Source: a virus (taxonomy: Duplodnaviria > Caudoviricetes). Taken from it: a DNA stretch of 64,000 nucleotides. Positions 34,063 through 63,931 of this stretch are shown piece after piece. The stretch spans positions 36,080 to 100,079 of the IMG/VR virus record IMGVR_UViG_3300029305_001134. One strand, 5' to 3'. A model generated the notes under the pieces. That model saw only the letters and a list, made by a program, of their open reading frames with translations. It did not search any database and had not been told where the DNA came from. Position 1 is the stretch's first letter, and each line of letters starts with the position of its first letter. The position numbers and the translations under genes are program-made.

Positions 34063-34086
34063 TATTTTAGTAAAGGAGAAAGAATT

Positions 34087-34332: not shown

Positions 34333-34648
34333 TAGATATGAAACTATTATTATTTATATTATGGGCTATAGTTGGATGTCTTGTGATGTCTCAAAACCAA
34401 ATAGCGCATGCTCAATATGGTTTATTATTGTTTACATATTTGATAAAATTGCTTTGCGATTATATACGTGAGGGGTGACAATGGAATGAAAATTATATTT
34501 GATAACGAAAAACAAAAGGAAACTTTTATCAAAACCTGTTGTCCTTGCGATTTCGATAGAGAATACCCTGGATATAATTGTGACGATTGTGAATCTTCGA
34601 TGAATTGTGAGAAATGTTTCGAGAAATACATAGAAATGGAGGTTAAAC

Positions 34649-37136: not shown

Positions 37137-37181
37137 GGTCGCGCAAAAAACATTCTTTATTATAGAAAGGATGGTGATTAT

Positions 37182-39221: not shown

Positions 39222-39324
39222 GAAAGAAAGAGAAAATAACTGAAATGAAACTGGCAACAGTGGACAAGTTAAAATGTAAGATGTGAGCGACAGTGACGAC
39301 CCAGACTCACACTCTCTTTCTTTT
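39222..39324 (+). ncRNA. Putative ~100-nt RNA (sRNA 5)
   Basis: AAAGAAAGAGA (39223)/TCTCTTTCTTT (39313) perfect 11-bp closing stem; ACTG-GCAA-CAGT tetraloop; GTGAG/CTCAC stem. Confidence 0.7.
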
Positions 39325-39359
39325 CCATTTATATTTTAAGTTAAGAAAGGAAAAGAAGT

Positions 39360-45183: not shown

Positions 45184-45447
45184 ATGCGTATTAGAGTACA
45201 AACCGACGATATTGTTATGACGGTTTATGAGGTGAGATATTTTATAACTCAAACAATGGTATTCGACGGCGCATACATGTCAGTTGAAGATTTATTAGAA
45301 TTAACAAATGGTTCTTTATTGGATTTACCGTTTGAGAATACAGGATGGTCTTTATCTGCTACAGGTATGCCTTCGGTTAAAAACATTAGTAAAGATGTTA
45401 TTGAAATTTCACCAGAGCCTGTAAAAGGATATTGGAGATTTTGGTAG
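45184..45447 (+). CDS. Cassette hypothetical protein
   Basis: Motif at 45142; hairpin GGGACTGCT/AGTGGTCC. Confidence 0.7.
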   Translation: MRIRVQTDDIVMTVYEVRYFITQTMVFDGAYMSVEDLLELTNGSLLDLPFENTGWSLSATGMPSVKNISKDVIEISPEPVKGYWRFW

Positions 45448-46829: not shown

Positions 46830-47129
46830 ATGAAGAAGAAAATTTTAGCAATTATATTGGGTATTATGCTCGGTGTCTCACTTGTTGGATGTGGTGGTAA
46901 CAGTCCTGAAAAAACGAGTGATGATACATATGAATATTTATTGATAGGTAATCGAAAATTCGTAGAAATCGAAACCAGCGGTGGTTTACTTGAACATTAC
47001 AGTTGTATTTATGTAGATTGTGAAACTAGAGTTCAATATGTAATGTTTAATGGCGGATATTATGGATCTATGAGTGCGTTATTAGATGCTGACGGAAAAC
47101 CTATTTTATACGAAGGAGAGTTGAAATGA
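46830..47129 (+). CDS. Lipoprotein
   Basis: LVGC lipobox; VD.ETRVQY, LLDADGKP. Confidence 0.75.
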   Translation: MKKKILAIILGIMLGVSLVGCGGNSPEKTSDDTYEYLLIGNRKFVEIETSGGLLEHYSCIYVDCETRVQYVMFNGGYYGSMSALLDADGKPILYEGELK

Positions 47130-47579
47130 GATATGTGTTTATGTGTATATTCTTAGTACTCATGATAGGATCACTCATTCGTATGTGCTCTTCTACAAAT
47201 GATTGGGCTAGTGAACGATTATGGTCAATAGCGGCTTCTATTAGTGCCACGATGTTAATTGTATTACATGCTTTATAGAAAGGATTGATATTTTATGAAA
47301 ATTGGTTTTGTATTACCGAGTTGTTCTTATAATATCGTGATATCGAAAGAGGAACTTGCGGGATTACTGGAAAAAGGTCATGCTCTTATACATGTCGGTA
47401 GAACATCTTGTAATACTGCACGAATAATAGTAGACGAAAGTGGTGATTTTAAATATATCGATAAAAAAGTGGTACCTAATAATTTGCAGATCCATTTAGA
47501 CGAACCAGTGGTCGATTGTGAAAAAGGTTATTGGCCCGTTCAGTTTTTGAACATACATATTGAAAGTGAGGATTAGATT

Positions 47580-48200
47580 ATGAAGAAAATTTTAGTTGTG
47601 GTAGATATGCAGAATGATTTTATTACTGGGCCTTTGGGAACACCAGAAGCTGTGAGTATTGTGGATAAAGTTGTGGAGAAGATTCGTGGGGAAGAGTGGG
47701 ATTGGATATTCGTTACCGTGGATACTCATTCTCCAGATTATCTCGATAATACACAAGAAGGTAAAAAGTTACCGGTTGAACATTGCATTTCAGGCACTGA
47801 CGGATGGAGACTGAATAGCAATATCGTAGAGGAATTAACCAAGCATGTTGATATTTACGACGAATATAGAAGACCTAAAATTGTTGCGAAAGATACGTTT
47901 GGTGCTGAAGAGTTGCCTAAAACTATGAAAAATATTATTCCGTTTTACAAATCACACGATTACGAATGTACCTTCATAGGCGTTTGTACTGATATTTGTG
48001 TAATCTCCAATGCTCTGTTATTGAAAGCGCATTACCCTGAGATGAGGATTGTGGTGGATGCTGCTTGTTGTGCGGGGACGACTCCTGAGAAGCATAGAAT
48101 GGCGTTGGAAGTTATGAAAAGTTGTCAAATCGACATCTTGAACGAAGTGAGTGGAGATCAGGTGGATGTGGTTAATTATATTCCGGATTGTGGGAGGTAA
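47580..48200 (+). CDS. Isochorismatase/nicotinamidase-family cysteine hydrolase
   Basis: VVDMQNDF, DTH, HC, GVCTDICV. Confidence 0.9.
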   Translation: MKKILVVVDMQNDFITGPLGTPEAVSIVDKVVEKIRGEEWDWIFVTVDTHSPDYLDNTQEGKKLPVEHCISGTDGWRLNSNIVEELTKHVDIYDEYRRPKIVAKDTFGAEELPKTMKNIIPFYKSHDYECTFIGVCTDICVISNALLLKAHYPEMRIVVDAACCAGTTPEKHRMALEVMKSCQIDILNEVSGDQVDVVNYIPDCGR

Positions 48201-48392
48201 AAGTTATGTATAAAAAGAAAAATGATATGAGCTATGAAGAGTTCGAAGGGGCGTATGACCATATCGATTATGATGAAACTCCTCGCTATAACGGAGAGGA
48301 TGAGGACTGTGATATTGATTGGGGTTCTTACTACGGTGATTTCGGGTGATTCGCTAAATAAACAACTTCTTTAATAGAAAGGAGTGATAAAC

Positions 48393-48767
48393 ATGAGTGT
48401 AACTATGGAATGCAAGGTGACGTTTGAGTTTACCGGAAAATTAAAAAACTGTAAATGGAAACAAGAACGAGTTATCAGAGACTTTTTGAAACAACGAGGT
48501 TTATTAGTTGATATTCTTAATAACGGGATTATAGATAATCTCAATAAGGAATTTGATGTTACTCATAAATGGTATGAGGGTATCTATTTCGATAAGGATT
48601 ATAAAAAATTCATACAAGAAGGTCAACAGAAATGGGCCGATATCGTTAATAAAAACGCAGGTACTGATATCGACGTCGAGTTATTTATCGATGAAGACGG
48701 TGATATTTACGGTAAAACGACACACCTACGAGAGATCTGTGAGATTCACATGGGTATCAAAATATAA
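48393..48767 (+). CDS. Cassette hypothetical protein
   Basis: Motif at 48350; downstream hairpin. Confidence 0.7.
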   Translation: MSVTMECKVTFEFTGKLKNCKWKQERVIRDFLKQRGLLVDILNNGIIDNLNKEFDVTHKWYEGIYFDKDYKKFIQEGQQKWADIVNKNAGTDIDVELFIDEDGDIYGKTTHLREICEIHMGIKI

Positions 48768-50447
48768 CAATTAAGGGCTTAGGCAGAAATGCTTGGGCTC
48801 TTTTGTTTTTAGTGGAGGAATAAAATTATGAGTAACAAAGTGGCAGTTATATATAAATATAGAGCCAATATAAACGACGATAATTATACGTTGGGTAGAC
48901 TGGTTACATATATTAAAGGTGACGTGATATCGATAGATGAACTCAGAGAAACAGAGGAAATGATATCTAGATACAGAGGAGTTTACGGGTATCCATTAAT
49001 CATTAATGTGTTTCCAGTATGTTGATGGAGGAATAAAATTATGGATAAAAGTTGGAAATTACAATTTGAAGATTTCGTATCTGGTAAACCTGAAAAAAGT
49101 GGGAACTATGTGGTTAGAAACAGATATGGAATGTTAGGAACTGACGATTATACGACTAGTTACGGAGGAATGTGGTGGAATAGCGCTAATGATGGTAGTA
49201 CGTTATATTCACCTAGTTCTTTCCGTGAATTGGGGAGTTATTAATGAAATCAATAAACAACGACAAACCATGTAAAAGAAAGAACTGTCCGTATTATTAT
49301 ATACATGGATATTCTAAGAGATGTGAGAGTTGCGATTGGAATCCAAAATGTGTGTGGACTGTGAGGAGGAAGAAAGTATGAGCTGTAATGGATATTTAGA
49401 ATCAGGAAAAATACCAAGGCGTTATTTCTTATATCTATGTAACAATATGCGCAAAATGCACGGCTTACCAATGAGGAGACGTAGAGCTTTGGAGAAATAT
49501 GAAAGAAAGTATGTGATTAGGAGGATTGCAGAATGATCAGAATCGTAGTTACAGAAATGCCAGAACATCCTAAAGATTGTCCTTTTAGTATATATGGATA
49601 CGATCGCGAGTGTTATGAATGTAAATTAAAAAGAGGAGTTAATGATACATGTGATTTGGAACATACGAAAGAGTGTGAACATCTGGTGGCGCCGTTTAAT
49701 CTACCAAGAACTGAGGAGAAAATGAAAGCGCACAATAGCACTGTATGTGTAAGTAATAGATTAGAAGCTGGAAAGAAGTTTATTGATTGTCGTCATTTAT
49801 GTGATATGGAATGTCCGTATAAAGTATATTAGGAGGAATAAATTATGACAAGATATTTAAATGATATTAGTGATGTAACCGCGTATGTACGACCTAAATT
49901 ATGTAAATATTATCATCCGCATATGAATACTATAGGATCTTATATTAATTGTTTGTATGAGATCGAAGATGGAAAAAATCAAAGTTATCGAGAAAATCAA
50001 TTTAGGGATGGGATTTAATGTTTTATGTTTATCATTGGCTGGAGTAATGGCAGTCGAATCGTTGAACGGACTGTATAAGCTTAGCATTAAAATGAAAGCA
50101 GATAAATCGATTAAAGAAGCTGCTAAAGTGATTAAGACGATTGATGAACTTTCAGAGTATTTTAACAAGATTAAGAAAGAAACTGAACAAGAACAGAAAG
50201 GAGAAGAGGAGGCTCAGTAATGGGTCTTCTTTTCTTTTAGAAAGGAGATTAATATGAAGGAACAGAAATTGAGACTTATATATAATTATTGGAATGCTGA
50301 AGGGACTAAAGGGGTGGCGAGCATGGATTTTACATACGATGAATTGAAAGAATACAAGTTCGAAAATTTAATGTGTTTAGAAGAATTTATCGCTAAAAGC
50401 AAAGGATATGATTCGGTAAAAACTATATCTCAGGGGATAACGGTGGT

Positions 50448-50840
50448 GTGATTATGAATAGGGAAATTCTTTTTAGAGGTCAATGGGTTAGAAATGGTGA
50501 ATGGGTTTATGGACATTATGTCTACAATCCTATATCCAATGAGCATTACATATTTCACGAAACGATGGTTGCAACAACGGTAAAACCAGGAACAGTTAGT
50601 CAGTATATTGGGTTGAATGATGTTAACGGTAATAAGATATTTGAGGGTGATTTTGTTGAGCAGCATTATCCTGATTACGACGTTAACCATTATTACAATA
50701 AACATAATGGACTTATCGTTAATTACGGATATGGTTGGAAAATTAAAGATGGAGATATTAGAGAAGTTTATGCCGGATTTGCGACTGTAAAAGTTATAGG
50801 TAACAAATGGGATAATCCGGAATTAGTGGAGGAGGAATAG
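50448..50840 (+). CDS. YopX-family protein
   Basis: REILFRG, QYIGLND.NG.KIFEGD, VIGNKWDNPEL. Confidence 0.88.
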   Translation: MIMNREILFRGQWVRNGEWVYGHYVYNPISNEHYIFHETMVATTVKPGTVSQYIGLNDVNGNKIFEGDFVEQHYPDYDVNHYYNKHNGLIVNYGYGWKIKDGDIREVYAGFATVKVIGNKWDNPELVEEE

Positions 50841-51278
50841 TTATGGAATATTATAAAATTTACAGTCATGTAGTTTGTGATAATTGTGGTGGGGTTATAG
50901 GTTCTTTTAACAGGAGTCCTTTTATTTGTGAACAATGCGGTAAAGAATTTGACATTGATAATATTAAACACGACTCTTTTATGCTGAATAGTAAAACAGG
51001 ATGGATATTTCCAATGGTGAAGAAAGAGAAAGGGGATTAAGATATGGGATTATTTAAAGATTTTATTATTTGGACAATATTTTACATAGCATGTACAAGT
51101 ATGGGTGCCTATACGATTTCGTCTGGTATAAAGTATTTGAAAGAAAAAGCGTGGTTTATGCTTGGTTTTGAAATATTCATGTTTTTGTATTGGGGTGGTT
51201 TATTTATTGTTAAATGTATTATACCACTCGCGTAAAAAACAACTTCCTTTATAGAATAATATTTAGGAGGATTGAATT

Positions 51279-51512
51279 ATGTTAAAAAACTTTATTAAAT
51301 TGGTGTGGATGCAATTAGTATACAAATTCTGGAGAGGATTATTTAACTTAAGTCAGAAACTATCATCGTATTATTACGGTAAGGGTAATGGATTTAAAGG
51401 TAAATATATTTCTCGATGGGGTTGGTATGCGTTTGGGTCACGTATGAATAAAGCGAAACAAAAATTCCGAACATATGTTCAGGAGAGTAGAAGAATGGAA
51501 GTCTATAACTAG
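51279..51512 (+). CDS. Cassette hypothetical protein
   Basis: Motif at 51228; AGGAGG RBS; hairpin overlapping the stop. Confidence 0.7.
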   Translation: MLKNFIKLVWMQLVYKFWRGLFNLSQKLSSYYYGKGNGFKGKYISRWGWYAFGSRMNKAKQKFRTYVQESRRMEVYN

Positions 51513-52901
51513 GCTTCTTTTCTTTTTATTTATGTAGATATTTAAGAAAGGTAAAAGATTTATGAGTAATATTGTAGAATGTAAATTTAAAAATGTGGAA
51601 GAATTCTTAGAAAAAACATATAAAATGGTTGGGGTAATGGGCTATCAGTATCAGGCGACTCGTCCTCGTGTGGTTTGTGCCGATGGATATTCTGTTAGTA
51701 TTCAGGCTGGTAAGTTTTTGTACTGTAGTAGCGATAGGGGACTTCGTGAAGATAGTAAGCGTTTCGAAAGTGTCGAGTTAGGTTTTCCATCCGTAGAAGA
51801 TGAATTAATTAACGACTTAGCCGAAGATCCTGAATGTCCAACTGATACAGTTTATGGGTATGTGCCTGTTAGATTGGTGAATAAATTGATGGAGAAACAT
51901 GGCGGTATTTGGGGAGTAGATTTCCGTAATACGAATGAGGTTTGGGATTTTAAGAAAGGAGATTAATATGAGAGTTACTATCGACAAATGTGATAGATGT
52001 GGAAAAGAAATCGGGAGACCTTGGCCTACTAATCCGATATATACTGTGGAAATCGATGGTCCGACGATGTTTAGTGATAAGAAATACGAAATATGTGGAG
52101 ACTGTAAAAAGATGCTTGATATTTTCTTCAGTACAGGGGTGACAGAAAATGATGATTAAATTATATAGAGAGTTAAAGGATTGTAGTGTGACAATGAAAA
52201 CTTCACCAGCTGTTTTGAGTGACGGTATGTATTTTGAATTCGTAAAAAGAGACAAGACACATCCTGCGCATATTGCTGACTTTGAAACTTTGGAAAATGA
52301 ACCGGAGATGGTGGAGACTATATTGATTTGCGAGTTGCATGATTTCTTACATAGATATTTTGGGATTGAGTAAGTGGAGTGAGTTGTGATGGATGAAATA
52401 ATGATGTTGCTGTGGTTACATAATATAGAAATGGTTATAAGAAAACATGAGTATAATAGTCAGTTAATTGTAGTTAAATTTCTCAAAAATAGATGGACTT
52501 GTGGTCCTTATCAAAGATGCAAGGTAATCGAAATAAATGTTAACGAATTAATAGAAGGGAAAGTCACCTATGTTGAATATTTACACCGTAGTTTATTGGA
52601 GTTTGTTAAGGAGCTAAACTATGAATAAATTGATGTTGAAACTTATGTATTATGGTATCAATATGACCGTGCGTCCTAGTGATTATGATAAATATATTAT
52701 CAGATTTGAGAAACAACAGGATTGGCCGTATAAGAAATCTCTTGAATGGATGGAATATCATGTGAATTGTCTAGAAGTCGATATGTGGAAAGCAGATTGG
52801 GAATGTATATTAGAAAAGTATTTGGATAGTTTTATTGAGGAGTTTCGCGACCAAAACTAGGACTCTTATGACAAAACATTTATATTATAGGAGGGAAATA
52901 T

Positions 52902-53336
52902 ATGAAAGTTACATTGGAATTGACAGTTGAGGAATTTGAGAGATTGCTTGGTGGAAAGAAAAAAACTAAAGAAGACAAGAAAACCGAACCAGAAATTGCC
53001 TACAGTCAGTATGCGAAATGTTTTGATAAGACGAGTAACGTATGGACTGAAGATCCAGAATACAACTTAATGTTCTTAAAACACATGGAGCTATATGCTA
53101 GTAATGTTTTAAGAGTTAAGGGACATGTATTCTTGAACGAAGTCTACGAATGGCTGGGATTACCAAAAACAAAAGCGGGACAGATTGTAGGATGGAAATT
53201 GGGAAAAGGTGATGATTATGTCAGCTTTGGGTTAAACAGTTTCGATCCGCAAGTATGTAAATTCATCAATGGCGAAAGTAATGTAGTAGTATTAGACTTC
53301 AATGTAGATGGAGTGATATTAGATGAGCTTGGGTGA
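52902..53336 (+). CDS. Cassette-borne C-terminal fragment paralog of 19123..20079
   Basis: YSQYAKCFD...FLNEVYEWLGLPKTKAGQIVGW...LDFNVDG. Confidence 0.8.
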   Translation: MKVTLELTVEEFERLLGGKKKTKEDKKTEPEIAYSQYAKCFDKTSNVWTEDPEYNLMFLKHMELYASNVLRVKGHVFLNEVYEWLGLPKTKAGQIVGWKLGKGDDYVSFGLNSFDPQVCKFINGESNVVVLDFNVDGVILDELG

Positions 53337-53405
53337 AAACCTGGGCTCTTTCTTTTTCCACTTGAACATGGTGAGAACAGTTGATATTTAGAAAGGAGAA
53401 AAGTA

Positions 53406-53848
53406 ATGGAGGAAGAAATTTGGAAAGATTGTGCGGGATATGAAGGTTTATACGAGGTTAGTAATTTAGGAAGGGTTAGAGATTCAGCATCTAAGAGTAT
53501 CATGAAAACTTGGGTGAATAGATGTAGTAATGATCGAAATTACATCATGGTGTATTGGATGATAAATTACTCGTTATACATAGGGACGGAAATTTCGAGA
53601 ACTGTTCTGTTGACAATCTGATAGTAATCGATAGAAGTAGTTATTATTGTTCGGAAGATATGTTCCCAAATTCAGACCATTTCGATAAGGGGATAAAAGT
53701 CAGATGCGTTGAGACCGGTACTGTGTATTATTCGGTGAGACAGTGCGCGTTAGATTTGGGTGTTGCTTGGTTGACTGTTGTTAAATGCGCAAAAGGTGGT
53801 ATACCGCAATTAAAAAACGGTTTGCATGTAGAATTCGTGGTGGATTGA
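53406..53848 (+). pseudogene. Degenerate NUMOD4-HNH endonuclease split across two frames
   Basis: EIWKD..GYEGLYEVSNLGRVR in one frame; HRDGNFENCSVDNL and VRCVETG in another. Confidence 0.7.
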
Positions 53849-54693
53849 TATTTAGAAAGGATAAACGTTATGGGATATTATAGTAGTTTAGTGGATACGC
53901 CTGTTGAAAAAATTAAAAAAGACGACATTGCGGTTTTGATCAGAGGTCTTCGCGGTGAGAGTACTGAGGCAAAACGTGGTAGAGCGATCAAGAAAACAAT
54001 CGATGCTATTGATTTTTACTATGAAGATAAAGATGGTTCATATAGCGATTTTATGCAGTTGTGTATGGATATGGCGATTAGTTTACTCATGGGATGTGAG
54101 GGTAATTTGAGTAAATTGGATCGTTGTACTGTTTGTTCTGAAGCTTTGAAATGGCTGGAGAGACTCGATGAGATTATTGCCGCTAAAGATACATTCAGAA
54201 GAGAGAAAATGTTAAGGAGGGGTGAGTGATAGTTATGACGTATATGGATAGAGTAGAACGAGTTAGATATTTAAAATTAGCAGCTGAACAGATCAAAGAA
54301 AATGCTGAGAGTATCGTTGGAACCGAGGATAGTCTTATGTCATTCGATGTTACTATTCGTATTAATCCCGGAGAAGCCCCTGTCATTGATGTTTATAAAG
54401 AATTGAGGGTAAAAGGATGAATATTATGGGTGAAAAAGTTATACCGGAAGAGAAAAAGAAGTTGCCTGCTATGCTGTATGCGATTCGTGACGATGATACT
54501 GGCGAGCTTATTTGGAATGCTAGAGGATATGCGTATAAATCGTTGAATAAAGCTATGAGAAAAATATTTGAATTAAGGGTGGCGAATCGTGAAAAGAGAT
54601 ATTCGTTGGTCATGTGGCGTCTAGACGATTATTGGTTGGACGGAGTATTTAGTACAGATATTGTGGAATTTACAAGTAGAAAGGTAAAGTAAC

Positions 54694-55197
54694 ATGGAAC
54701 GAGAATGGAGAGTAATTAGTTGGGCTCATAATTATGAGGTTAGTAATTATGGAGAAGTGAGAAGGGTTGATACGAAGAGATATTTACGTGGAAGTAAAAC
54801 TACGTATGGGAATTTGAATATATCTATTCCGGATGATAATGGTAATGAACGTAAGAGGACCATTGCTTCAATAGTTGCTGAAATGTTTATCGAGAAACCT
54901 GTTGCCATAAAGGGAAACATTATGGTTATGCATAAGGATCGAAATAAACTGAATAATCGTGTTGATAATTTGAAATGGATTGGTAAATCAGATTTTAATA
55001 GAAAATATGTTACTCGTGGTCAGACATTCGGTATGACATATAATCGTACGAAAATAAAATGTGTTGAGACGGATATCGTGTATGACAATATGGCTGAGGC
55101 TGCGAGACTTATGGGTATAGACAGATCAGGTATAAATCGCTGCGCTAACGACCCAAATCGGACATATAAAGGCTTTCATTTCGTTAGGGTGAGTTAG
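54694..55197 (+). CDS. NUMOD4-HNH endonuclease
   Basis: YEVSNYGEVR; HKDRNKLNNRVDNLKW. Confidence 0.85.
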   Translation: MEREWRVISWAHNYEVSNYGEVRRVDTKRYLRGSKTTYGNLNISIPDDNGNERKRTIASIVAEMFIEKPVAIKGNIMVMHKDRNKLNNRVDNLKWIGKSDFNRKYVTRGQTFGMTYNRTKIKCVETDIVYDNMAEAARLMGIDRSGINRCANDPNRTYKGFHFVRVS

Positions 55198-55757
55198 TCT
55201 TCGGTGGAAATGAGAAAATCGATTCTAGGGGCAAATTTGGGGCTTGTAGATAGGTTCTGTGAGGATAATGGGAGAAAAATATATGGTAGATAAAATATTA
55301 TACGAAGGTGATGATGTAGTAGTTAGACTACCTTGGGATCAACTCGTGATGGAAGGACATAGTGCGGCCTTTTGTGAGTGTGGTTATGTGCTACACATCG
55401 AAACACCTGCTATTAAAAACTGGTATACAATTAAATGTCCGAAATGTGGTTTTGTAATCCAGCTGTATTGTGGAAAAGAAGGTAAACATCTGGATATGGC
55501 TATGGTAAGAAGTTGTTTGTAGGAGGAAAATATATGAGAACATTTTATACAAAAATTAAACCTGGAACTAAGGTAGCTATTCGTGGGGTGATTAAAGGTA
55601 CGATGGGTGCGTTTTGTGGCAATGTTACGTCACTCGGGAATGATGTTTATAAAGTTAGATGTGGTGAGGCGGAGTATAAGAAATTCGCTGATTGGGTTAA
55701 GGAAAGATATCCTAGAGTTTGTATGTTTGATTATAAGATGTAGGGAGGTAGTAAAAA

Positions 55758-56132
55758 ATGATTAAACGTGATAAAGATTTTGAAGATATGACTATCGATG
55801 AAATGTTGGAACTTTATAGAAATAATAAGACGGTAACTAATAGATTGGAAAGAACTAAGGACTTATTAGGTGAATGTGGATTAGAAAATACCACATTGCG
55901 AGAAAGACGAGAACTTAGCGGTACTGAAGCAAGATTAAAAGAACGCATGGAAGTTAATATTAAAAAGACTATAAGATATTTAAAGCAAGGATTGTCTCAG
56001 GCTGAAATCGCTATAGAATTAGGAGTTGGGGTTAGTCATGTTAGAAAACTGATTGATATTATTCGTACATCGGAAGAAAGACGTATAGCAATCGAAGAAG
56101 CAATGTCGCGTGGAAAACATACTCCTTTATGA
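55758..56132 (+). CDS. HTH protein
   Basis: GLSQAEIAIELGVGVSHVRK. Confidence 0.7.
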   Translation: MIKRDKDFEDMTIDEMLELYRNNKTVTNRLERTKDLLGECGLENTTLRERRELSGTEARLKERMEVNIKKTIRYLKQGLSQAEIAIELGVGVSHVRKLIDIIRTSEERRIAIEEAMSRGKHTPL

Positions 56133-56168
56133 CAAATATTAAACTAAAAATTATAGGAGGATGGAAAT

Positions 56169-56861
56169 ATGTTTAAGAAAATTTTGAAAGGTTTAGCAAT
56201 TGTATTAGGTATAGGAGCGCTTGTGGATCTGACAGATATTTGTGGAAAAGCTGCGGCATATCATGCGATGAGTCTTCATAATAAGGAGGCCGTTGATGAT
56301 TTACTGGAGTATTTGGAAAACGATGAAAATCTGGAAGAAGAAGGGCTTTCTAAGGCTAAACAATATCGAGTAGGAATGGTTACAAAATGTACAAGATTCT
56401 TTATGGAAAATCGTTGATATTTGTGGGAAGAGCGTTTGGAGAAATCTGAGCGCTCTTTTGTTTTTCGCTAAAAAATCGTAGGCTATTATGAAACAAAATA
56501 AAAATTTTTAATAAAGAAAAGGAGACGAAATATGAGTAAAGTTAGAGAATTTTGGGGAGAACACAAGGTAGAAATCGCTATAGCGGCCGGAATCGGAATT
56601 AGTTTAGTTGTAGGCGGAGTCATTGGGTGGAAAGCATCTGGATATCTCAGACCTGGTAGTAAGACAACAGACATGTTTTTGAAGTCTGCAAGTCACGCAC
56701 ATCCGGGAATTTGGGCTAACGGATATGACATGAAGACCATTGAAAACGCGTATAAAACTACTGATTTAGGTAAATTTGGTGAGTTATTAATCGAACTTGG
56801 TGCTCCTACAGACCACAAATTCACACATATTTTAGCAATTGGACCGAAAATGGTTGAATAA
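56169..56861 (+). CDS. Two adjacent cassette membrane proteins (56169-56417, 56532-56861)
   Basis: Motifs at 56106 and 56464; RBSs; hairpins. Confidence 0.7.
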
Positions 56862-56946
56862 TTGGTTTTAAATCGAGAGGGCTTGAGTAGAAATACTCGG
56901 GCTCTTTTGTTTTAAAATATAGATTCGTAAAAAGAAAGGAGAATTT

Positions 56947-57246
56947 ATGGAAAGACACAGTAGAAACGGGGCTAGAAAACGTGGGAGACCGAGAGAGGAG
57001 GGAGCTAGACGTCATTATCTGAAGACTTTATGTAGTGATTCCGAAATTGATAAAATTAAAAGTGCTTCTAGAAAATATGGAGTTACTCAATCGGATATCA
57101 TTCGAAGAGGCATAGAAATGTATATTCGAGAATTGGAATCGAGTAACGCAGAACCTAATGAAGAATTTTTTGATTATGATTATTGGGATGAAGATTATTA
57201 TGAAGACCTAGAAGACGAGGAAAATGACGATGAAAACTGGAATTAA
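56947..57246 (+). CDS. AT-hook/RHH-like DNA-binding protein with acidic tail
   Basis: KRGRPR; GVTQSDIIRRGI; adjacent to the iteron region. Confidence 0.6.
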   Translation: MERHSRNGARKRGRPREEGARRHYLKTLCSDSEIDKIKSASRKYGVTQSDIIRRGIEMYIRELESSNAEPNEEFFDYDYWDEDYYEDLEDEENDDENWN

Positions 57247-57517
57247 CATGGTCATAGAAAATAATTTACATGGTCATAGAAAATAATTTACATGGTCATA
57301 ATAATTCGCGAAAATCGAGAAAAAGTAGCTAAAAATCGAGAAAAACGCTCATTTTTGGATGTATTTTACATGGTCATAATAATTAGTGAAAAAATATATA
57401 TTTAATATTACTATGTGATTGTTTTAACAAAAGTTAAAGAAATTAAAATTAAGTTAAAACAACCTATAGAGGATTTTTTTTTTATATTTTTTTTGAATTA
57501 ACATGGCCATAATAATT
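57246..57517. repeat. Iteron-like repeats with AT-rich tract (putative origin)
   Basis: ACATGG(T/C)CATA at 57246, 57268, 57290 (22-bp period), 57368 and 57501; AAAATCGAGAAAAA twice. Confidence 0.7.
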
Positions 57518-57546
57518 ACAAGATTAACAAATTAAAGGAGAAAGAG

Positions 57547-57843
57547 ATGAAAATGAATAATGCTGAAAAACGAATTAAAGAAAGTTTGAAAAACGAATCA
57601 AACAACGAAAACTTACGAATTAATGTGGAAAGAAACGAAGCAGGATGGCGACATGCATTCGCGAATAACTTAGCAAAAAACATGCATGATAAATACATAA
57701 GTCAGTCCGAACTATCGAATGTTACGGGGATATCGTCGGTAAGTTTGAGTAGATATATAAACGAACGAGCGACACCAAGCGGTTATAATCTTGAGAAAAT
57801 AGCAGATGCTTTAGGATGCGACATTACGGATCTTATTCGATAA
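57547..57843 (+). CDS. XRE HTH regulator
   Basis: ISQSELSNVTGISSVSLSRYIN..ATP. Confidence 0.85.
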   Translation: MKMNNAEKRIKESLKNESNNENLRINVERNEAGWRHAFANNLAKNMHDKYISQSELSNVTGISSVSLSRYINERATPSGYNLEKIADALGCDITDLIR

Positions 57844-57860
57844 AAGAAAGGAATGTGATT

Positions 57861-58325
57861 ATGAATTCTGTTATAAAAATGAATAATATGTGGGATTATG
57901 CTCTTACGGAATTCGGTATGCATTATCCACATTTAATAGATTCTGTCGTCGATTGGTATCCATGCGGACAAATGGAAATTACAATAAAATTATCAAATGG
58001 TAAAAAAATACTGTTCAAATGGATGGATAAAACATGTCGTAATTTATCGAATAGTGGGTCTACTATATGTGATATATATTCTCCTGACGAACATGATGAG
58101 AAGTATATTGATGAAGAAAAATGGCGTAAAAAATTCTCTGCGAAATTGAACGAAAAAATACTTGTTAATTGTATTTCACAAGAAGAATTATCAGAACGTA
58201 CTGGTATATCGCAAGTTATGATCAGTAAATATTTAAACGCAAAAGCAACTCCGAGTTTCTATCGCATTGAACAAATAGCACGAGTGTTAAAATGCTCAGT
58301 TTCGGAACTTGGAAATATTAGATAG
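57861..58325 (+). CDS. XRE HTH regulator
   Basis: ISQEELSERTGISQVMISKYLNAKATP. Confidence 0.85.
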   Translation: MNSVIKMNNMWDYALTEFGMHYPHLIDSVVDWYPCGQMEITIKLSNGKKILFKWMDKTCRNLSNSGSTICDIYSPDEHDEKYIDEEKWRKKFSAKLNEKILVNCISQEELSERTGISQVMISKYLNAKATPSFYRIEQIARVLKCSVSELGNIR

Positions 58326-58335
58326 AAAGGACTAA

Positions 58336-58827
58336 GTGATGGAAAGATGGAAAACATGTAGGGAATTCCCGAACTATGATGTTAGTGACCACGGGCGAAT
58401 TAGAAATAATAATACTGGGTATATTTTAAACCCGAGTCTCGATGCTAACGGTATTCAGCGAGTAACTTTATTATATAATGGTTTTAGAAAATATAAACAT
58501 GTACATAATCTAGTTGCCGAAGCATTTGTGCCTGGGGAAACCGAATATAGTATGGTCGTTCATAAAGATGATGATCAAACTAATTGTTATGCGAATAATC
58601 TGAAATGGGTTGAACGCGGAGAACGATATAGATATTTTTACGATAGCGGCAAGTGTAACAATAACCATTTTAAAAAGAGAGTAAGATGTGTTGAGACAGG
58701 AGAAATATTCGAATCTATTACTGAATGCTCAGAAATCACAGGACTTAATTATCGAGTGATTAGCAGATGCGTTAACAATCCGGTAACTCGTACGCGAGAT
58801 GGATTACACTTTAGATTCGTAGATTGA
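58336..58827 (+). CDS. NUMOD4-HNH endonuclease
   Basis: FPNYDVSDHGRIR; HNLVAEAF; HKDDDQTNCYANNLKW. Confidence 0.85.
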   Translation: MMERWKTCREFPNYDVSDHGRIRNNNTGYILNPSLDANGIQRVTLLYNGFRKYKHVHNLVAEAFVPGETEYSMVVHKDDDQTNCYANNLKWVERGERYRYFYDSGKCNNNHFKKRVRCVETGEIFESITECSEITGLNYRVISRCVNNPVTRTRDGLHFRFVD

Positions 58828-59021
58828 TATTTAAAAGATTAAAGAGGGTGCTGATTTTACAGGCTCTCTTTTTTTTTATCATTTCCTAATTATGGTTCCG
58901 TCTTTACCCGCTATTAGAACATGCTATTTTATGAGAGAAAGGTAGAAAGGTCAAATTTTGGCCTATATTTTACGTTTTCCTTTTCGTTTTTAGAAAATAC
59001 AACATAGAAAGGAGACCACAC

Positions 59022-59312
59022 ATGCTGGAAAGTAAATTTCAGGCGAAACTCATAAAAGAGCTAAAATATATATTTCCAGGCTGTATCGTGTTAAAAAACG
59101 ACAGCTCATGTTTGCAGGGTATACCGGACTTGCTTGTACTTTATAAAAACAAATGGTGTATGTTGGAAGTTAAGCAGAGTGCTAGAGCTTCACACAGACC
59201 AAACCAAGAATACTATGTAAACAAACTCGACGACATGTCCTTTGCTCGATTTGTTTATCCCGAGAATAAAGACGAGGTTCTAGACGAGTTAGATTTATAT
59301 TTTACTTATTGA
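59022..59312 (+). CDS. VRR-NUC nuclease
   Basis: GIPDL...LEVK...RPNQ. Confidence 0.85.
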   Translation: MLESKFQAKLIKELKYIFPGCIVLKNDSSCLQGIPDLLVLYKNKWCMLEVKQSARASHRPNQEYYVNKLDDMSFARFVYPENKDEVLDELDLYFTY

Positions 59313-59326
59313 AGGAGAACACACAT

Positions 59327-59884
59327 ATGAAATTCAACAACCATCACAATCTTGCTGGACTTCACGCTCCATTCAGTCCGAGTCAATCAAGCTGGCTCAG
59401 ATATGATGATGAAAAAGCGAGAGAAGTTTACAACAACAAAAAAGCTGCCGAATTGGGAACGAGATTACACGAATGGGCAGCCGAAACTATTAATCTTGGA
59501 ATTAAACAACCTAAATCCAAAAAGACCCTTTCCGCGTATGTGAACGATGCGATTGGTTTCAAGATGGATACAGAGGTTGTTTTGTTTTATTCTGAAAGAT
59601 TCTTTGGTACAGCCGATGCGATTTGTTATCGAGATGGTATCCTGCGAATTCACGATTTAAAAACAGGAAAGACTGCGGTAAAAATGGAACAGCTTATGGT
59701 TTACGTAGCTTTGTTCTGTCTCGAATATATGATCAAACCTGGCGAAATCAAACAGATCGAATTACGAATCTATCAGAATGACGAAATCTTATATCATAAT
59801 CCAGAAGCTGACGAAATAGCTCCTATTATGGATAAAATTATTCATTTAAATAAATTATTAGCAAAGATGGAAGAGGAGGTGTGA
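59327..59884 (+). CDS. PD-(D/E)XK (Cas4/RecB-like) exonuclease
   Basis: GTRLH, E, GTADAI, IHDLKTG, QLMVY. Confidence 0.8.
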   Translation: MKFNNHHNLAGLHAPFSPSQSSWLRYDDEKAREVYNNKKAAELGTRLHEWAAETINLGIKQPKSKKTLSAYVNDAIGFKMDTEVVLFYSERFFGTADAICYRDGILRIHDLKTGKTAVKMEQLMVYVALFCLEYMIKPGEIKQIELRIYQNDEILYHNPEADEIAPIMDKIIHLNKLLAKMEEEV

Positions 59885-59888: not shown

Positions 59889-60584
59889 ATGAGAGATTAT
59901 TACGAAGATGAATATTATGACGAGTACGATAATTACGATGAATATTATCCGGAAGAATATGAAGATGACTATGATTATGAAGAAAGTCGTTTCTGTAAAC
60001 GTTGTGGATATCCTGTAAGAATGAATGAAGAACCAATCTTTGATGATTTTGAAGATCCAGAAGCTGGTGTATGGGCTACAATTCCCGATTTCCCTAACTA
60101 TGAAGTTAGTATTTACGGCGAAGTTAGAGAAAAAGATACTGGACGCATATTGCGCGGATATATAAACCCGGACGGTTATCACATGGTGTCGTTACGAGGA
60201 CAGCATCCAATATCGGTTCATCGACTGGTTGCGACAACATTTTATGGTAGACCTTCTGACCCGCGTATGCAAGTTAATCATATTAACTGTGTTAGAAATG
60301 ACAATAGAGTAATAAATCTCGAATGGGTTACACCTAGTAGAAATGTTAAATGGGCGGTAATGCGTGGAAATCTCGATTGGAAAAAGGGTTTACAACGAGC
60401 TACCGAAGTAAACAAACGCCCGGTAAGAATCGTTGAAACAGGACAAGTATTTGCTAGTCTCCAAGATTGCGCAAATTATTTAGGTGTCACAAGAGGGAAC
60501 GTTAGTCGAGTTCTTTCTGGGGAACGAAAAGGACAAAGACTACACGGTTATCATATAGAGTACGTTCGAGAGGAGGAAATGTGA
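59889..60584 (+). CDS. NUMOD4-HNH endonuclease with acidic N-terminus
   Basis: FPNYEVS; VHRLVA; VNHINCVRNDNRVINLEW. Confidence 0.88.
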   Translation: MRDYYEDEYYDEYDNYDEYYPEEYEDDYDYEESRFCKRCGYPVRMNEEPIFDDFEDPEAGVWATIPDFPNYEVSIYGEVREKDTGRILRGYINPDGYHMVSLRGQHPISVHRLVATTFYGRPSDPRMQVNHINCVRNDNRVINLEWVTPSRNVKWAVMRGNLDWKKGLQRATEVNKRPVRIVETGQVFASLQDCANYLGVTRGNVSRVLSGERKGQRLHGYHIEYVREEEM

Positions 60585-63500
60585 TGTTATCCGTAGCTGA
60601 TGAAATAGCTTTATTTTTAGATGGTGATTATTCCATCGACGAAGAACTCATTCATTACGGTATGAAATTCCGCAGTGGGAGGTATCCATATGGCAGTGGG
60701 GAAGATCCTTACCAGCACAGCCGAGACTTCCTCGGACGAATCGAAGAGCTTAAGAAATCCAATTTTACATACACAGACAAAGACGGTAAAACATGGACAG
60801 GTGATAACGCAATTGCTAAATCTATGGATCTCACGACAACCGAATATCGTAGACAGGTAAGTTGGGCGAATTATGAACGTCGTCTTCTTAATGTAGAAAC
60901 AGCCAAATCCTTACGAGAAGATGGTCTTGGTTATACTGAAATTGGTAGAAAAATGGGAATGCCGGAATCAACAATCCGTTCTCTGCTTAATCCAAAATCA
61001 GAAGACCGTATGCAGCAAGCTATGAATACAGTAGATTTCTTACGTAAACAGCTTGAAGAAAAAGGTATGATCGACGTAGGTACAGGTGTTGAGCGAGAGT
61101 TAAGAATCTCCAAAGAACGTCTTGATATGGCTCTCGATTATTTGGAGAAAGCTGAAGGATGTCCAGTTTATAAAGGCGGTGTTCCTCAGCCAACAAATCC
61201 AGGACAGCAGACAAACCAGAGAGTTCTTTGTTTACCTGGAACCAAACATAGCGAAATCTACGATTACGATAGAGTAAAAACCATCAACGATTATATTACA
61301 CGTGATGATGGTGTTACATACGAGAAGAAATTCAAATACCCAGAAAGCATGGATTCTAGTCGATTGATGATTCGTTATAAAGATGATGCTGGTCCTGACG
61401 GAATAACCGGTATTGAAAAAGACGGTATTATCGAGATCAGACCAGGTGTTGCAGACTTATCCTTAGGTGAATCCCGATATTCTCAGGTACGAATCTTAGT
61501 AGACGGCGATAGATATTTAAAAGGTATGGCTGTTTACTCTGACGACTTACCAGATGGTGTTGATGTTGTATTTAACACTAACAAAGGTAGAGATGTGGCG
61601 CCACGAGATGTAATGAAAGAAATTAAGAACGATCCAGATAATCCATTTGGTTCTGCGATTAAAGATGCTGATCAGGGCGGACAGTATTGGTATGACGCTG
61701 ACACTGGAAAACGTTGTAGCGCAACCGACCCGAATGTTAAAAACAAGAAACTCGGTCTTATCAATAAACGTGCCGACGAAGGTGACTGGTCTGAATGGGC
61801 TGACGCTTTACCTTCACAGTTCTTAGGTAAACAGAGTAGAGCTATGGCTAAGAAACAGCTTGATTTGGCTAGAAAAGATTCTCTTGCTGAATTTGAAGAA
61901 TATTGTAGTATCAACAACCCAACAATTAAGAAACATATGTTGGAGAAATTTGCGGATAGTTGTGATTCAGCAGCCGTAAATCTGAAAGCAGCTGCATTAC
62001 CAGGACAGAAGTATCACGTAATCATTCCGATTAATACTCTGAAAGAAACAGAAGTATATGCACCTAACTATGAAAATGGTAGCAAACTCGCTTTAATTCG
62101 TTACCCTCACGGTGGAACATTCGAGATTCCTATTTTAACAGTTAATAACAAAAACCCATTAGCGAATAAAATATTAGGAAGCGATGTTGGAGATGCCGTT
62201 GGTATCAATGCTAAAGTTGCGGAACGATTATCTGGAGCAGACTTCGATGGCGATACGGTTATGTGTATTCCTACGCATGATGCTGGTGGAAAGGTAAAGA
62301 TTACTTCTACTCATTCATTAAAAGGTCTTGAAGGATTCGATCCTAAGACTTCGTATGGTACAACTATGCAGCTCGATGAAGAAGGTAATAAACGTTATTA
62401 TCGTAACGGCCAGGAAATTAAAGTCATGAAGAATACTGGAACAGAGATGGGCAAAGTTTCAAATCTGATTACAGACATGACATTGGCTGGAGCTAAAGAA
62501 GATGAATTAGCGAGAGCTGTTAGACATTCCATGGTTGTTATCGATGCTGAGAAACATAAGCTGGACTATAAAGCTTCCGAAATTGAAAACGACATTGCTG
62601 CTCTTAAGAGAAAGTATCAGAAGAAAGTTGATGCTGATGGTAATATTGTAGGATATGGTGGGGCTGCTACGATTCTATCTCGTGCTAAAGGTGAAACATC
62701 CGTAGATAAACGACAGGGGTCATACAAGATTAACATGAAAGACTCCCCGGATTACGATCCAACTAAACCGGAGGGTGCTAAATTATGGAAGACCGCCGAT
62801 GATTTATACTACCCGGATAGGAAGTATGATAAGAAGACCGGTACCATGACATTACGTACCGCGGATGGTAAGAAGATAACCTACGATATCAAAGATAAGG
62901 ACGCCCATGAGAGGTATAACCCAGTAGAGGTGAAGGACCCGGTGACAGGCGAGGTATCCTATACCAACAAAGATGGTAGTATCTCCTATCGAGTTAGAAC
63001 CCGTACCCAGGAGAGTACTAAGATGGCGGAAACAGATGATGCATATACCCTGGTATCCGCAGCAAGACACCCTATGGAAGTATTATATGCAGACTATGCG
63101 AATGATATGAAGGCCCTTGGTAATAAGGCTCGTGTAGAGATGAAGACTACGGGTAAGATTGCATATAGCGCACAGGCTAAGGCTAAATATGCTGACGAAG
63201 TAAAGGCTCTTGAAGAAAAGCTTAATACCGCCCTCCTTAACACAACTAGGGAAAGGGCTGCTTTGCGTTTAGCTAATGCTGAGATTAACGAGGCTAAGAA
63301 ACTTAATCCAGACATGAAAGCAGAAGACATTAAGAAGAAGAGTCAAAGAGCAGTTACTAAATATAGAGCTGAAGTAGGTTCTGTTGCTAGACGTAATCGT
63401 AATATCGAAATTACAGACAAAGAATGGGAAGCTATTCAGGCTGGTGCTATTAGCGAGAATAAACTTAAACAGATTCTTAATAATACAGACATCGATAAGC

Positions 63501-63661
63501 TTAGAGAAAGAGCTACACCACGAATAACTACATCTTTATCAGCTACACAAGTAGCAAGAGCAAAAGCTATGGCTTCATCTAACTATACGTTGAATGACAT
63601 TGCTAAGAAGCTTGGTGTTTCTTCTACAACTGTAAGTAAATACTTGAAAGGAGTGAAATAA
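60581..63661 (+). CDS. Single-subunit two-barrel RNA polymerase (YonO/QDE-1-like) with N- and C-terminal HTH
   Basis: LIRYPH (RxP) and LSGADFDGD (62240-62254); GKVSNLIT and VIDAEK segments resemble RNAi RdRP/YonO; HTHs GLGYTEIGRKMG and TLNDIAKKLGVSSTTVSKYL. Confidence 0.78.
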   Translation: MMLSVADEIALFLDGDYSIDEELIHYGMKFRSGRYPYGSGEDPYQHSRDFLGRIEELKKSNFTYTDKDGKTWTGDNAIAKSMDLTTTEYRRQVSWANYERRLLNVETAKSLREDGLGYTEIGRKMGMPESTIRSLLNPKSEDRMQQAMNTVDFLRKQLEEKGMIDVGTGVERELRISKERLDMALDYLEKAEGCPVYKGGVPQPTNPGQQTNQRVLCLPGTKHSEIYDYDRVKTINDYITRDDGVTYEKKFKYPESMDSSRLMIRYKDDAGPDGITGIEKDGIIEIRPGVADLSLGESRYSQVRILVDGDRYLKGMAVYSDDLPDGVDVVFNTNKGRDVAPRDVMKEIKNDPDNPFGSAIKDADQGGQYWYDADTGKRCSATDPNVKNKKLGLINKRADEGDWSEWADALPSQFLGKQSRAMAKKQLDLARKDSLAEFEEYCSINNPTIKKHMLEKFADSCDSAAVNLKAAALPGQKYHVIIPINTLKETEVYAPNYENGSKLALIRYPHGGTFEIPILTVNNKNPLANKILGSDVGDAVGINAKVAERLSGADFDGDTVMCIPTHDAGGKVKITSTHSLKGLEGFDPKTSYGTTMQLDEEGNKRYYRNGQEIKVMKNTGTEMGKVSNLITDMTLAGAKEDELARAVRHSMVVIDAEKHKLDYKASEIENDIAALKRKYQKKVDADGNIVGYGGAATILSRAKGETSVDKRQGSYKINMKDSPDYDPTKPEGAKLWKTADDLYYPDRKYDKKTGTMTLRTADGKKITYDIKDKDAHERYNPVEVKDPVTGEVSYTNKDGSISYRVRTRTQESTKMAETDDAYTLVSAARHPMEVLYADYANDMKALGNKARVEMKTTGKIAYSAQAKAKYADEVKALEEKLNTALLNTTRERAALRLANAEINEAKKLNPDMKAEDIKKKSQRAVTKYRAEVGSVARRNRNIEITDKEWEAIQAGAISENKLKQILNNTDIDKLRERATPRITTSLSATQVARAKAMASSNYTLNDIAKKLGVSSTTVSKYLKGVK

Positions 63662-63664: not shown

Positions 63665-63931
63665 ATGGAAAACAAACTGTTTATGTTGACAACAATTGAC
63701 AATCCTTTTGATCCATTTGAAGATTTTACTTCTTGGTTTTGCTTTGATGCTTCAAAAGGTTACAATTCTTGTGGAATACTTGCACGAATTCTTGATACAT
63801 TTGATGTTGAGTTCGATGAATTAACAGAAAAAGAAGAAAGTGCAGTGATTGAACAAGCAATTGATGCTTGGATTTCTGTAAATCCTTTTAATAATTATAA
63901 AAAAGCTACACGAATTGATAACGTAAACTAA
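63665..63931 (+). CDS. Phage protein downstream of the RNAP
   Basis: MLTTIDNPFDPF..F..W..FD..KGY; GAAAGGAG RBS. Confidence 0.75.
   Translation: MENKLFMLTTIDNPFDPFEDFTSWFCFDASKGYNSCGILARILDTFDVEFDELTEKEESAVIEQAIDAWISVNPFNNYKKATRIDNVN

Follow-up and report, generated by a model that had tools for sequence, protein, structure and literature searches.

We analysed a 64-kb stretch of phage DNA (the window), the last 64 kb of the 100,079-bp IMG/VR virus record IMGVR_UViG_3300029305_001134, which is complete by CheckV. The gene at 60581-63661 encodes a single-chain RNA polymerase with two double-psi beta-barrels and an intact RxP...DxDGD active site in its core (residues about 250-860). We consider the enzyme to be, with fair probability, a sigma-free DNA-dependent transcriptase that reads a promoter class of its own, 27-32 bp long, and serves the early and middle programme of the phage, its own operon included. 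A first-pass annotation of this DNA had proposed a two-barrel RNA polymerase of about 1000 residues with built-in helix-turn-helix (HTH) domains; the AlphaFold model obtained here matches only two-barrel polymerases, with Z scores of 13-14.9.

The open reading frame (ORF) lies on the plus strand near the extreme right end of the record (genome positions 96660-99737 of 100,079 bp). It is a real gene and comprises 1026 codons if counted from GTG 60581. The likelier start is probably ATG 60584, because a GAGGAGG ribosome-binding site at 60570-60576 precedes this codon by 7 nucleotides (nt) and the corresponding residue, Met-2, is invariant among 75 aligned homologues. The protein matched PHROG 4291, labelled 'RNA-dependent RNA polymerase', over its full length (E = 0 and 1159 bits, residues 20-1024 aligning with positions 9-907 of the 909 in the profile). 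Full-length homologues of 36-41% identity were detected by tblastn in 250 cultured-phage records, including phages of Arthrobacter, Gordonia, Streptomyces and Rhodococcus, Lactococcus phages 1706 and P162, and Faecalibacterium phages; in the complete genomes listed, the homologous gene is located no more than a few hundred bases from the right genome end. A copy of 70% identity is present in a human-gut scaffold, and an exhaustive HMMER search of a protein library gave 2203 representative clusters, of which 875 reached E <= 1e-30. A megablast search against cultured phages returned no match. We assign the polymerase to the known Lactococcus-1706/actinophage/Faecalibacterium family (PHROG 4291) as a full-length member. 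The phage-1706 protein was listed by Ruprich-Robert and Thuriaux in 2010 among five YonO-like families with a DxDGD loop (PMC2919709), and Koert et al. described the terminal HTHs together with the DxDGD loop for the family (bioRxiv 10.1101/842583), the architecture having thus been published in 2010 and 2021. The central proposal of the first-pass annotation repeats this family description, and the gene adds no new principle to it. Our literature search found no purification, biochemical work or virion proteomics for the family and no published link of a family enzyme to a promoter or a leader tag. The host of the phage is an uncultured low-GC gut bacterium, and the G+C content of the polymerase region (window 60001-64000) is 0.39-0.41, compared with 0.33-0.37 in the remaining window.

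An AlphaFold (AF2) model of the polymerase was built from the 75-sequence alignment and is confident outside residues 1-48 (predicted local distance difference test score, pLDDT, 87; predicted template modelling score, pTM, 0.78). All Foldseek matches of this model at E <= 1e-3 were single-chain two-barrel polymerases, namely QDE-1 (E 4e-9), the Thermus-phage proteins P32 gp64 and P74 gp62 (E 1e-6), and RDR2; weaker, non-significant rows were the beta-prime subunit of multisubunit RNA polymerase, P23-45 gp96, AR9 and crAss gp66. Alignment with VIA-align gave a Z score of 14.9 over 366 residues for RDR2 (7w82) and of 14.8 over 386 residues for QDE-1 (range for both enzymes 14.5-14.9), and Z scores of 13.0 and 12.9 for the phage enzymes P74 gp62 and P32 gp64, respectively. 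Model residues about 250-860 took part in these alignments, the QDE-1 match extending from 255 to 858 and covering both barrels. Far from lacking double-psi beta-barrels, the core of the predicted structure aligns with QDE-1 and RDR2.

Sequence comparisons gave far less. The Pfam RdRP (PF05183) threshold was not reached (11.4 bits against a cut-off of 23.8, E 0.004), and the sole match was local, at the DxDGD loop (model positions 425-450). A whole-protein Pfam scan returned helix-turn-helix models only and no RdRP match, and searches of PDB sequences with the protein, with the 75-sequence profile or with the barrel segment alone retrieved HTH proteins and no polymerase. When YonO of phage SPbeta was compared with the 75-sequence profile by hhalign, the result was not significant (probability 0.2%, E 0.33), and no Bacillus phage was among the organisms listed by tblastn. 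Of the two enzymes to which the first-pass annotation had pointed for comparison, QDE-1 was matched in fold and YonO was not matched in sequence. In our model, kinship with the known two-barrel polymerases is visible at the fold level only; since the sequence links to known families are so thin, the PHROG 4291 polymerases form a separate family within the two-barrel superfamily, as Ruprich-Robert and Thuriaux had proposed (PMC2919709).

The RYP and GADFDGD motifs and the two HTHs noticed in the first-pass reading are all present, at residues 507-509, at residues 552-558 and at both protein ends, respectively. RYP is found twice in the protein, at R34-Y-P36 within a conserved N-terminal motif and at R507-Y-P509, and the latter, 47 residues ahead of D554, is the predicted catalytic copy. 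R507, P509, D554, D556, G557 and D558 are invariant in two homologue alignments of 150 and 75 sequences. The spacing between RxP and DxDGD in QDE-1 (R962/P964 and D1007) is about 45 residues, as here (PMC2919709). Q302, R304, K314, G315 and D328 are also invariant in the 75-sequence alignment and were compared with QDE-1 (D709/R738/K743) at the fold level only; the conserved stretch QVRILVDGDRYLKGMAVYSDDLPDGVD, which contains them, lies within the region structurally aligned to QDE-1.

At least three DNA-binding-type modules surround the polymerase core. The Sigma70_r4_2 profile scored 28.6 bits on the whole protein (cut-off 25.7), a value in which both stretches of the protein are summed; the N-terminal stretch alone scored 18.7 bits, below the cut-off. 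Residues 49-252 were modelled separately (pLDDT 86.7). The tri-helical HTH in this model resembles the HTHs of DeoR/SorC, ParB/KorB, resolvase, LuxR and sigma region 4 (VIA-align Z 5.7-7.3, root-mean-square deviation (rmsd) about 2.2-3 Å). The following winged-helix-like domain was best matched by the extended winged helix of TFIIIC tau138 (Z 7.5, 84 residues, rmsd 2.4), with further matches to CtsR, Rpa2, TFIIE, GntR and MarR. All Z values for the N-terminal module are below 8, so the modelled domains point to a fold class only, and a Foldseek search with the N-terminal domain alone returned nothing at E <= 1e-3. An interpretation of the N-terminal HTH as sigma region 4 was not adopted; sigma region 4 was among the VIA-align matches and was not the top one (maximum Z 7.5). 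The C-terminal 170 residues are helical, with three short helices at 988-1022 in the model, and the HTH there exceeded the Pfam cut-offs (in brackets) of HTH_38 with 28.2 bits (27), of HTH_23 with 26.6 bits (24.6) and of HTH_3 with 25.4 bits (23). The N- and C-terminal HTHs showed no similarity to each other by BLASTP, which gave no sign that they are duplicates.

The early and replication half of the genome carries an array of a promoter-like element. Its layout is tTCGCG-(A/T-rich N6)-ACA-N4-CT-N-TTAT-GA-purines; its length is fixed, and it is found on the plus strand only, all TCGCG sites having been read. A ribosome-binding site and a start codon follow at 10-40 nt, and a hairpin-plus-T terminator often precedes the element. 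A position weight matrix (PWM) in which the 5-mer was masked gave 40 matches on the plus strand and none on the minus strand. TCGCG, or an nCGCG-like variant one or two bases away, is present at 39 of the 40 sites, which validates the 5-mer independently. The exact core pattern has 19 occurrences against 0.00 expected. The elements span window positions 447-58939, and none is located in the virion-gene half. For the promoters of relatives, 8-mer enrichment over whole genomes was uninformative, swamped as it was by coding bias; intergenic 6-mers combined with manual reading succeeded.

Several features set this element apart from sigma-70 promoters. Window 1-16000 shows no excess of sigma-70-like sites (55 against 65 expected) and does show one of terminators (27 against 6.7 expected). 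If T20-n-T-T-A-T25 is read as a -10 box, the -11 position is an A in about 40% of the sites here and in 38% of 198 sites of relatives, and no -35 box was found at 16-18 nt from the would-be -10 box in either set. No Sigma70_r2 domain was found in the 100-kb genome by a search that a very divergent sigma factor (T4 gp55-like) would escape, and region-4-like matches in the genome are confined to the polymerase and one ORF of 124 amino acids (55758-56132). The unenriched sigma-70-like sites, the scarcity of A at -11, the missing -35 box and the missing Sigma70_r2 domain together argue that the element is not a sigma-70 promoter in this phage. Positions 26-31 are almost purely purine, like the initially transcribed region of phage-polymerase promoters. 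With purine 26 taken as +1, TCGCG is centred at about -23 and ACA at about -13, one helical turn apart, a geometry that would suit a pair of neighbouring DNA-binding modules bound to the same face of the DNA.

The element recurs with the polymerase in related phages. The masked PWM, applied to 80 related viral contigs with a polymerase of 50-70% identity, gave 234 matches on the polymerase strand against 17 on the opposite strand, and 78-89% of the distinct sites have CGCG at positions 2-5, which the matrix had masked. In 62 of the 62 relatives with enough upstream DNA, an element lies about 950-1180 nt upstream of the polymerase, a spacing consistent with its heading an endonuclease-exonuclease-polymerase operon. 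The corresponding element in this phage lies 1745 nt upstream of the polymerase HYG motif, a longer distance because an HNH gene has been inserted. Contigs chosen by the exact promoter pattern alone contained the polymerase in 24 of 31 large cases, and in 23 of 25 when completeness is 90% or more. The exact promoter pattern without a detectable polymerase was seen in two contigs, G001 and G029, of 90-92% rated completeness; they may lack the genome end that holds the gene, or they may be relatives naturally devoid of the polymerase, which would be informative. Four promoter-bearing relatives are classed as proviruses.

More distant phages carry recognizable versions of the element. Arthrobacter phage Circum, which has a high-GC host and a polymerase of 40% identity, contains TCGCGTAAATTACAnGGGsTATAATrGA in early intergenic gaps and also ahead of its endonuclease-exonuclease-polymerase operon. 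Lactococcus phage 1706 has cCACAnnTTTTACAnnnnCTATAGTAGAAAG at 11 early sites, in which the ACA-N4-CT spacing is kept and the upstream 5-mer is different (CCACA). The first-pass annotation had suggested that the HTHs recognize the TCGCG/TTAT element independently of a sigma factor. The comparative data make such HTH-mediated reading more likely, because the element lacks sigma-70 character, is accompanied by the polymerase in 23 of the 25 near-complete contigs and recurs in 1706 and an Arthrobacter phage. Comparison of the HTH recognition helices of this phage, Circum (TCGCG) and 1706 (CCACA) gave no clear assignment.

In the mechanism that we propose, the fused DNA-binding modules would allow the enzyme to find its own promoter without a sigma factor, and TTAT would serve as the melting region just before the purine start. 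The enzyme would transcribe some 40 units of the early and replication classes, its own operon among them, which would result in a host-independent early and middle programme with self-amplification. More speculatively, a few copies of the enzyme might be delivered with the virion, addressed by a conserved N-terminal leader, to start the loop. What we observed of this scheme is the fold with its catalytic residues intact, the DNA-binding-type modules, and a promoter array that co-occurs with the gene.

The leader, EELIHYGMKFRSGRYPYGSGEDPYQH, is conserved to 90-100% at its key residues across the family. A six-frame translation of the 100-kb genome contains just four instances of L-x-H-[YW]-G, each 10-25 residues from the start of its ORF and with acidic residues ahead of it. 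Three of these ORFs flank terL/portal (genome 7525-8640, 10438-10992 and 11005-11652), and the fourth is the polymerase. The three terL-flanking proteins match Pfam DUF7211 (PF23847) at E 1e-8 to 2e-11; the DUF7211 model consists of 25 residues and reads L-x-H-[YH]-G-x-x-G-M-K-W-G-x-R-R. The polymerase N-terminus did not match this model even at E <= 10. When the profile of 62 polymerase leaders was compared by hhalign with that of 68 DUF7211 tags, the first 13 columns (d-e-L-x-H-Y-G-x-x) aligned with a probability of 87.6% (P 3.5e-6). The first-pass annotation had pointed to a similar leader on other proteins of such phages, speculatively as a virion-packaging signal; the likeness is real and holds for the first half of the motif, the 13 columns aligned by hhalign. 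The tag-bearing orf7 of phage 1706, located just upstream of terL, is annotated as structural.

The head protease, a scaffold-like spacer and the major capsid protein of the present phage are fused in one ORF of 627 amino acids (genome 12928-14811). At five places in the spacer, a hydrophobic-L-x-H motif precedes S, N or G (FVMAH-SDD, LVLYH-SDD, EALKH-NEE, DVLSH-SEM and AVLAH-GIE). All five look like the beginning of a DUF7211 tag and are candidates for cleavage by a protease; the last, AVLAH-GIE, is placed about where the mature capsid protein would be expected to begin. A leader with a capsid-targeting and protease-site role would be a reasonable idea. An extended version of our proposal holds that the enzyme is delivered in the virion and acts independently of sigma factors, that its HTH and winged helix read the 27-bp promoter, that the L-x-H-Y-G leader, as a half-form of DUF7211, loads it into the capsid and is trimmed by the head protease, and that phages of Actinobacteria and Firmicutes share the resulting orthogonal and self-amplifying early programme; this version is possible, and we regard it as rather doubtful.

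A number of points weigh against the proposed sigma-free transcription, with or without delivery. Because the polymerase gene stands behind its own promoter class, a starter is needed, be it virion-delivered enzyme or host transcription, and no convincing sigma-70-type site was found near the polymerase operon. Some host-driven expression must exist if the phage is temperate, since a delivered enzyme cannot explain prophage induction. The annotation of phage 1706 does not count the polymerase, orf75, among the structural proteins. A hairpin-plus-T-run terminator of the type used by bacterial RNA polymerase closes every unit, and the downstream part of the Circum and 1706 elements, TATAAT and TATAGT, qualifies as a good -10 box; in the hosts of these two phages, the element could be read by the host enzyme together with an activator from the phage. 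Co-occurrence of element and polymerase is not specific to this protein, as these phages share most other genes. Polymerase alignment columns in the HTHs carried no mutual-information signal with the first base of the 5-mer (20 loci, 15 with T and 5 with A, a sample confounded by phylogeny). Our literature search found no measurement of activity, template preference, promoter binding or start site for any member of the family.

The terminators and the -10-like TATAAT and TATAGT segments would also fit a division of labour in which the 27-bp elements are read by host RNA polymerase, perhaps helped by an HTH protein of the phage, and the phage polymerase, a YonO-like late enzyme, transcribes the virion genes from another signal, possibly TCAAAATGG. 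Late genes are indeed transcribed by YonO (PMC5467207); the polymerase gene is placed behind a 27-bp element, as that of an early or middle product would be; and the virion half, being devoid of this element, must be transcribed by something. There are 30 copies of TCAAAATGG, distributed genome-wide on the plus strand only (window 435, 1376, 6261, 13077, 14153 and 23934 among others). At least eight of these copies, however, simply hold the start codon of a long ORF, and part of the TCAAAATGG signal may be a preferred translation-start context and not a promoter. The shortage of A at the would-be -11 position (38-40% of sites in this phage and its 80 relatives), the lack of a -35 box at 16-18 nt and the unenriched sigma-70-like sites all speak against reading by host RNA polymerase, as does the presence of a near-identical element in hosts as unlike as Arthrobacter and low-GC gut Firmicutes. 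We judge this arrangement unlikely.

Two other functions were weighed. The name used by PHROG 4291 and many GenBank records would make the protein an RNA-dependent RNA polymerase that copies phage RNAs, for example ORF-less RNAs from some cassettes, and the best structural matches, QDE-1 and RDR2, are cellular enzymes of this type. The label, however, rests on homology only, and QDE-1 copies DNA too (PMC9508822). The characterised phage relatives act on DNA, as established biochemically for YonO (PMC5467207) and by chromatin immunoprecipitation sequencing (ChIP-seq) on the phage genome for gp64 and gp96 (PMC10770324). The phage is a double-stranded DNA virus, and its polymerase has three DNA-binding-type modules and an accompanying DNA promoter array, which renders an RNA-copying role very improbable. 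A function as a replication or recombination accessory, such as a primase-like RNA synthase that acts together with the endonuclease and exonuclease encoded next to it, is suggested by gene order: the gene ends the replication module in an operon with these two nucleases, an order kept in Circum and implied in 62 loci by the fixed promoter distance. Yet the phage DNA polymerase already has a primase-like region (phrog_864, residues 152-467), and HTH-guided binding at 40 sites upstream of genes would fit transcription and not priming; we give this function hardly any credence. The proposal of a sigma-free, promoter-specific transcriptase is the one that we carry forward. The features on which it draws, together with the neighbouring genes, are collected below.

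Features of the polymerase gene, its operon and the promoter-like array (window coordinates; residue numbers refer to the polymerase)
Feature	Position	Strand	Basis
Promoter-like array TCGCG-N6-ACA-N4-CT-N-TTAT-GA, 40 elements, candidate polymerase targets	447..58939	+	PWM, 5-mer masked
Promoter-like element, CCGCT variant, heading the endonuclease-exonuclease-HNH-polymerase-small ORF operon	58908..58939	+	PWM score 17.9
Exonuclease gene, conserved upstream neighbour in the same operon	59309..59884	+	phrog_3953, E 1e-73
HNH homing endonuclease between the exonuclease and polymerase genes	59889..60584	+	phrog_59, E 1e-36
Single-chain two-barrel RNA polymerase gene	60581..63661	+	ORF list, translation, PHROG 4291 match, ribosome-binding site
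Conserved N-terminal leader EELIHYGMKFRSGRYPYGSGEDPYQH, residues 21-46, predicted disordered	60641..60718	+	Conservation, pLDDT 44-54
N-terminal tri-helical HTH, residues about 95-144	60863..61012	+	Sigma70_r4_2/Sigma70_r4 matches at 112-136; domain model
Winged-helix-like domain, residues about 145-232	61013..61276	+	Domain-model matches
Catalytic core, two double-psi beta-barrels, residues about 250-860	61328..63160	+	VIA-align, Foldseek
Conserved stretch QVRILVDGDRYLKGMAVYSDDLPDGVD, first (beta-like) barrel	61484..61564	+	Invariant columns, 75 homologues
R507-Y-P509, RxP motif of the second (beta-prime-like) barrel	62099..62107	+	R507 and P509 invariant
G552-ADFDGD-558, metal-binding catalytic loop	62234..62254	+	Invariant S551-G-A-D-x-D-G-D558; sub-threshold Pfam RdRP match
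C-terminal HTH, residues about 986-1024	63536..63652	+	HTH_38, HTH_23 and HTH_3 above Pfam cut-offs
Small acidic ORF, 88 amino acids, PHROG 4303	63665..63931	+	phrog_4303, E 4e-25

The stop codon of the HNH gene overlaps the polymerase start, and the exonuclease-polymerase junction is about 700 nt shorter in relatives, the HNH gene being inserted at this point. It is one of four paralogous phrog_59 HNH genes (window 24651-25286, 54694-55197, 58336-58827 and 59889-60584). The first of the four lies between the two ORFs into which the family-wide DNA polymerase (PHROG 4210, a single profile of 1304 positions) is divided here, 21878-24646 matching profile positions 1-927 and 25279-26625 matching 922-1295; this interruption may be an intron or a split gene. 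On the other side of the polymerase, the small ORF contains the motif DNPFDPF within TTxDNPFDPF...EKGYN and is found directly 3' of the polymerase gene in 69 of 73 related loci. Its counterparts are orf76 of 1706, which is homologous in sequence, and gp99 of Circum, which is similar in size and position only; searches of Pfam and the ESM Atlas gave no lead. The small ORF is a conserved partner and possibly a cofactor of the polymerase. The description of the phage as temperate in the first-pass annotation is plausible, given a serine integrase at 3093-5099 (minus strand), a CI-like regulator at 5215-5598 (minus strand) and the relatives classed as proviruses, although no integrated copy was seen.

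Further repeats and genes were noted around the promoter-like elements. A sequence of roughly 27 nt, GTGAGAACAGGTGAAACTTTAGTTGAA, lies directly upstream of four elements (window about 640, 10300, 11340 and 11835) and might represent a recombination joint or a 3' end common to the cassette genes. The element at 39197 is followed by a gene for an RNA ligase (window 39360-40667; PHROG 968, E 1e-71). TCGGGA repeats of 1706 were considered as a dispersed promoter and rejected, as they form a local cluster just upstream of its polymerase gene. Positions 51652-52028 of the 1706 record contain seven direct copies of AAAACTTCGGGA, arranged in two larger repeats, which fill a 450-bp non-coding gap before the polymerase gene; no equivalent of this gap is present in the phage studied here, in which the HNH gene abuts the polymerase.

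The closest comparison is with the polymerases of 1706 (orf75), Faecalibacterium phage FP_oengus and the actinophage supercluster, which share 36-41% identity, N- and C-terminal HTHs, DxDGD, the position at the right genome end and a small downstream ORF. The present genome differs from those of the cultured relatives in its size (100 kb, compared with 55-60 kb), in carrying an integrase and a repressor, and in the HNH gene inserted before the polymerase gene. The exonuclease-polymerase gene order is also found in Circum, and the exonuclease gene is adjacent in Circum and in the operon of this phage, whereas in 1706 the endonuclease and exonuclease genes are about 2.7 kb upstream of the polymerase gene. 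Cultured members (Lactococcus 1706 and many Arthrobacter, Gordonia and Streptomyces phages) make the pairing of polymerase and element testable at the bench, and the value of the gene described here is that of a well-preserved further member with an unusually rich promoter array.

QDE-1 of Neurospora and RDR2 of plants are the best fold matches and differ as eukaryotic silencing enzymes that act on RNA or single-stranded templates, at 12-16% identity. The closest solved phage structures are those of the non-virion RNA polymerase type of Thermus phage P23-45 gp64, with its relatives P32 gp64 and P74 gp62 (8f72, 8f5m), with Z scores of 13 and about 340-350 residues aligned. A conserved promoter motif of its own precedes the early genes read by gp64, a motif that is GC-rich, unlike the element here (PMC10770324). 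Enzymes of the gp64 type have about 590 residues and are without the roughly 250-residue N-terminal HTH/winged-helix extension and the roughly 170-residue C-terminal extension; core identity is 15-16%. The virion RNA polymerases phi14:2 gp66, P23-45 gp96 and N4 vRNAP, the last of a different fold, provide a functional model for the speculative delivery, as polymerases that enter the cell with the phage DNA and read early promoters closed to the host enzyme. The first two were weak Foldseek matches (E 0.06 for gp66 and 0.013 for gp96), and virion RNA polymerases are proven virion components that are encoded in structural modules or fused to tail proteins.

YonO resembles the present enzyme as a phage-encoded transcriptase in a single polypeptide of about 100 kDa with equally spaced RxP and DxDGD; in the best hhalign alignment only the catalytic motifs line up, LIRYPH...GADFDGD with ILRSPH...QFDNDGD. 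It differs in that no terminal HTHs have been reported for it and in that it transcribes one late operon, compared with about 40 early units, here predicted targets. How a single-chain two-barrel polymerase finds its promoter was stated as an open question in the YonO study (PMC5467207). The PHROG 4291 family offers a direct handle on this question, as its members combine their own DNA-binding modules with a sharply defined candidate promoter that is present dozens of times per genome. If correct, the proposal would account for early expression in a very large phage group (2203 clusters, 250 cultured-phage records).

Promoters of the T7 type are contiguous and about 25-30 bp long, with a TATA-like melting segment, a purine-rich start and many copies on one strand. 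The likeness of the present element and enzyme to the T7 system is functional only, the T7 polymerase superfamily being unrelated; the proposal, if true, would describe a compact, sigma-free, promoter-specific system that resembles T7 RNA polymerase in use and stems from the cellular-type polymerase lineage.

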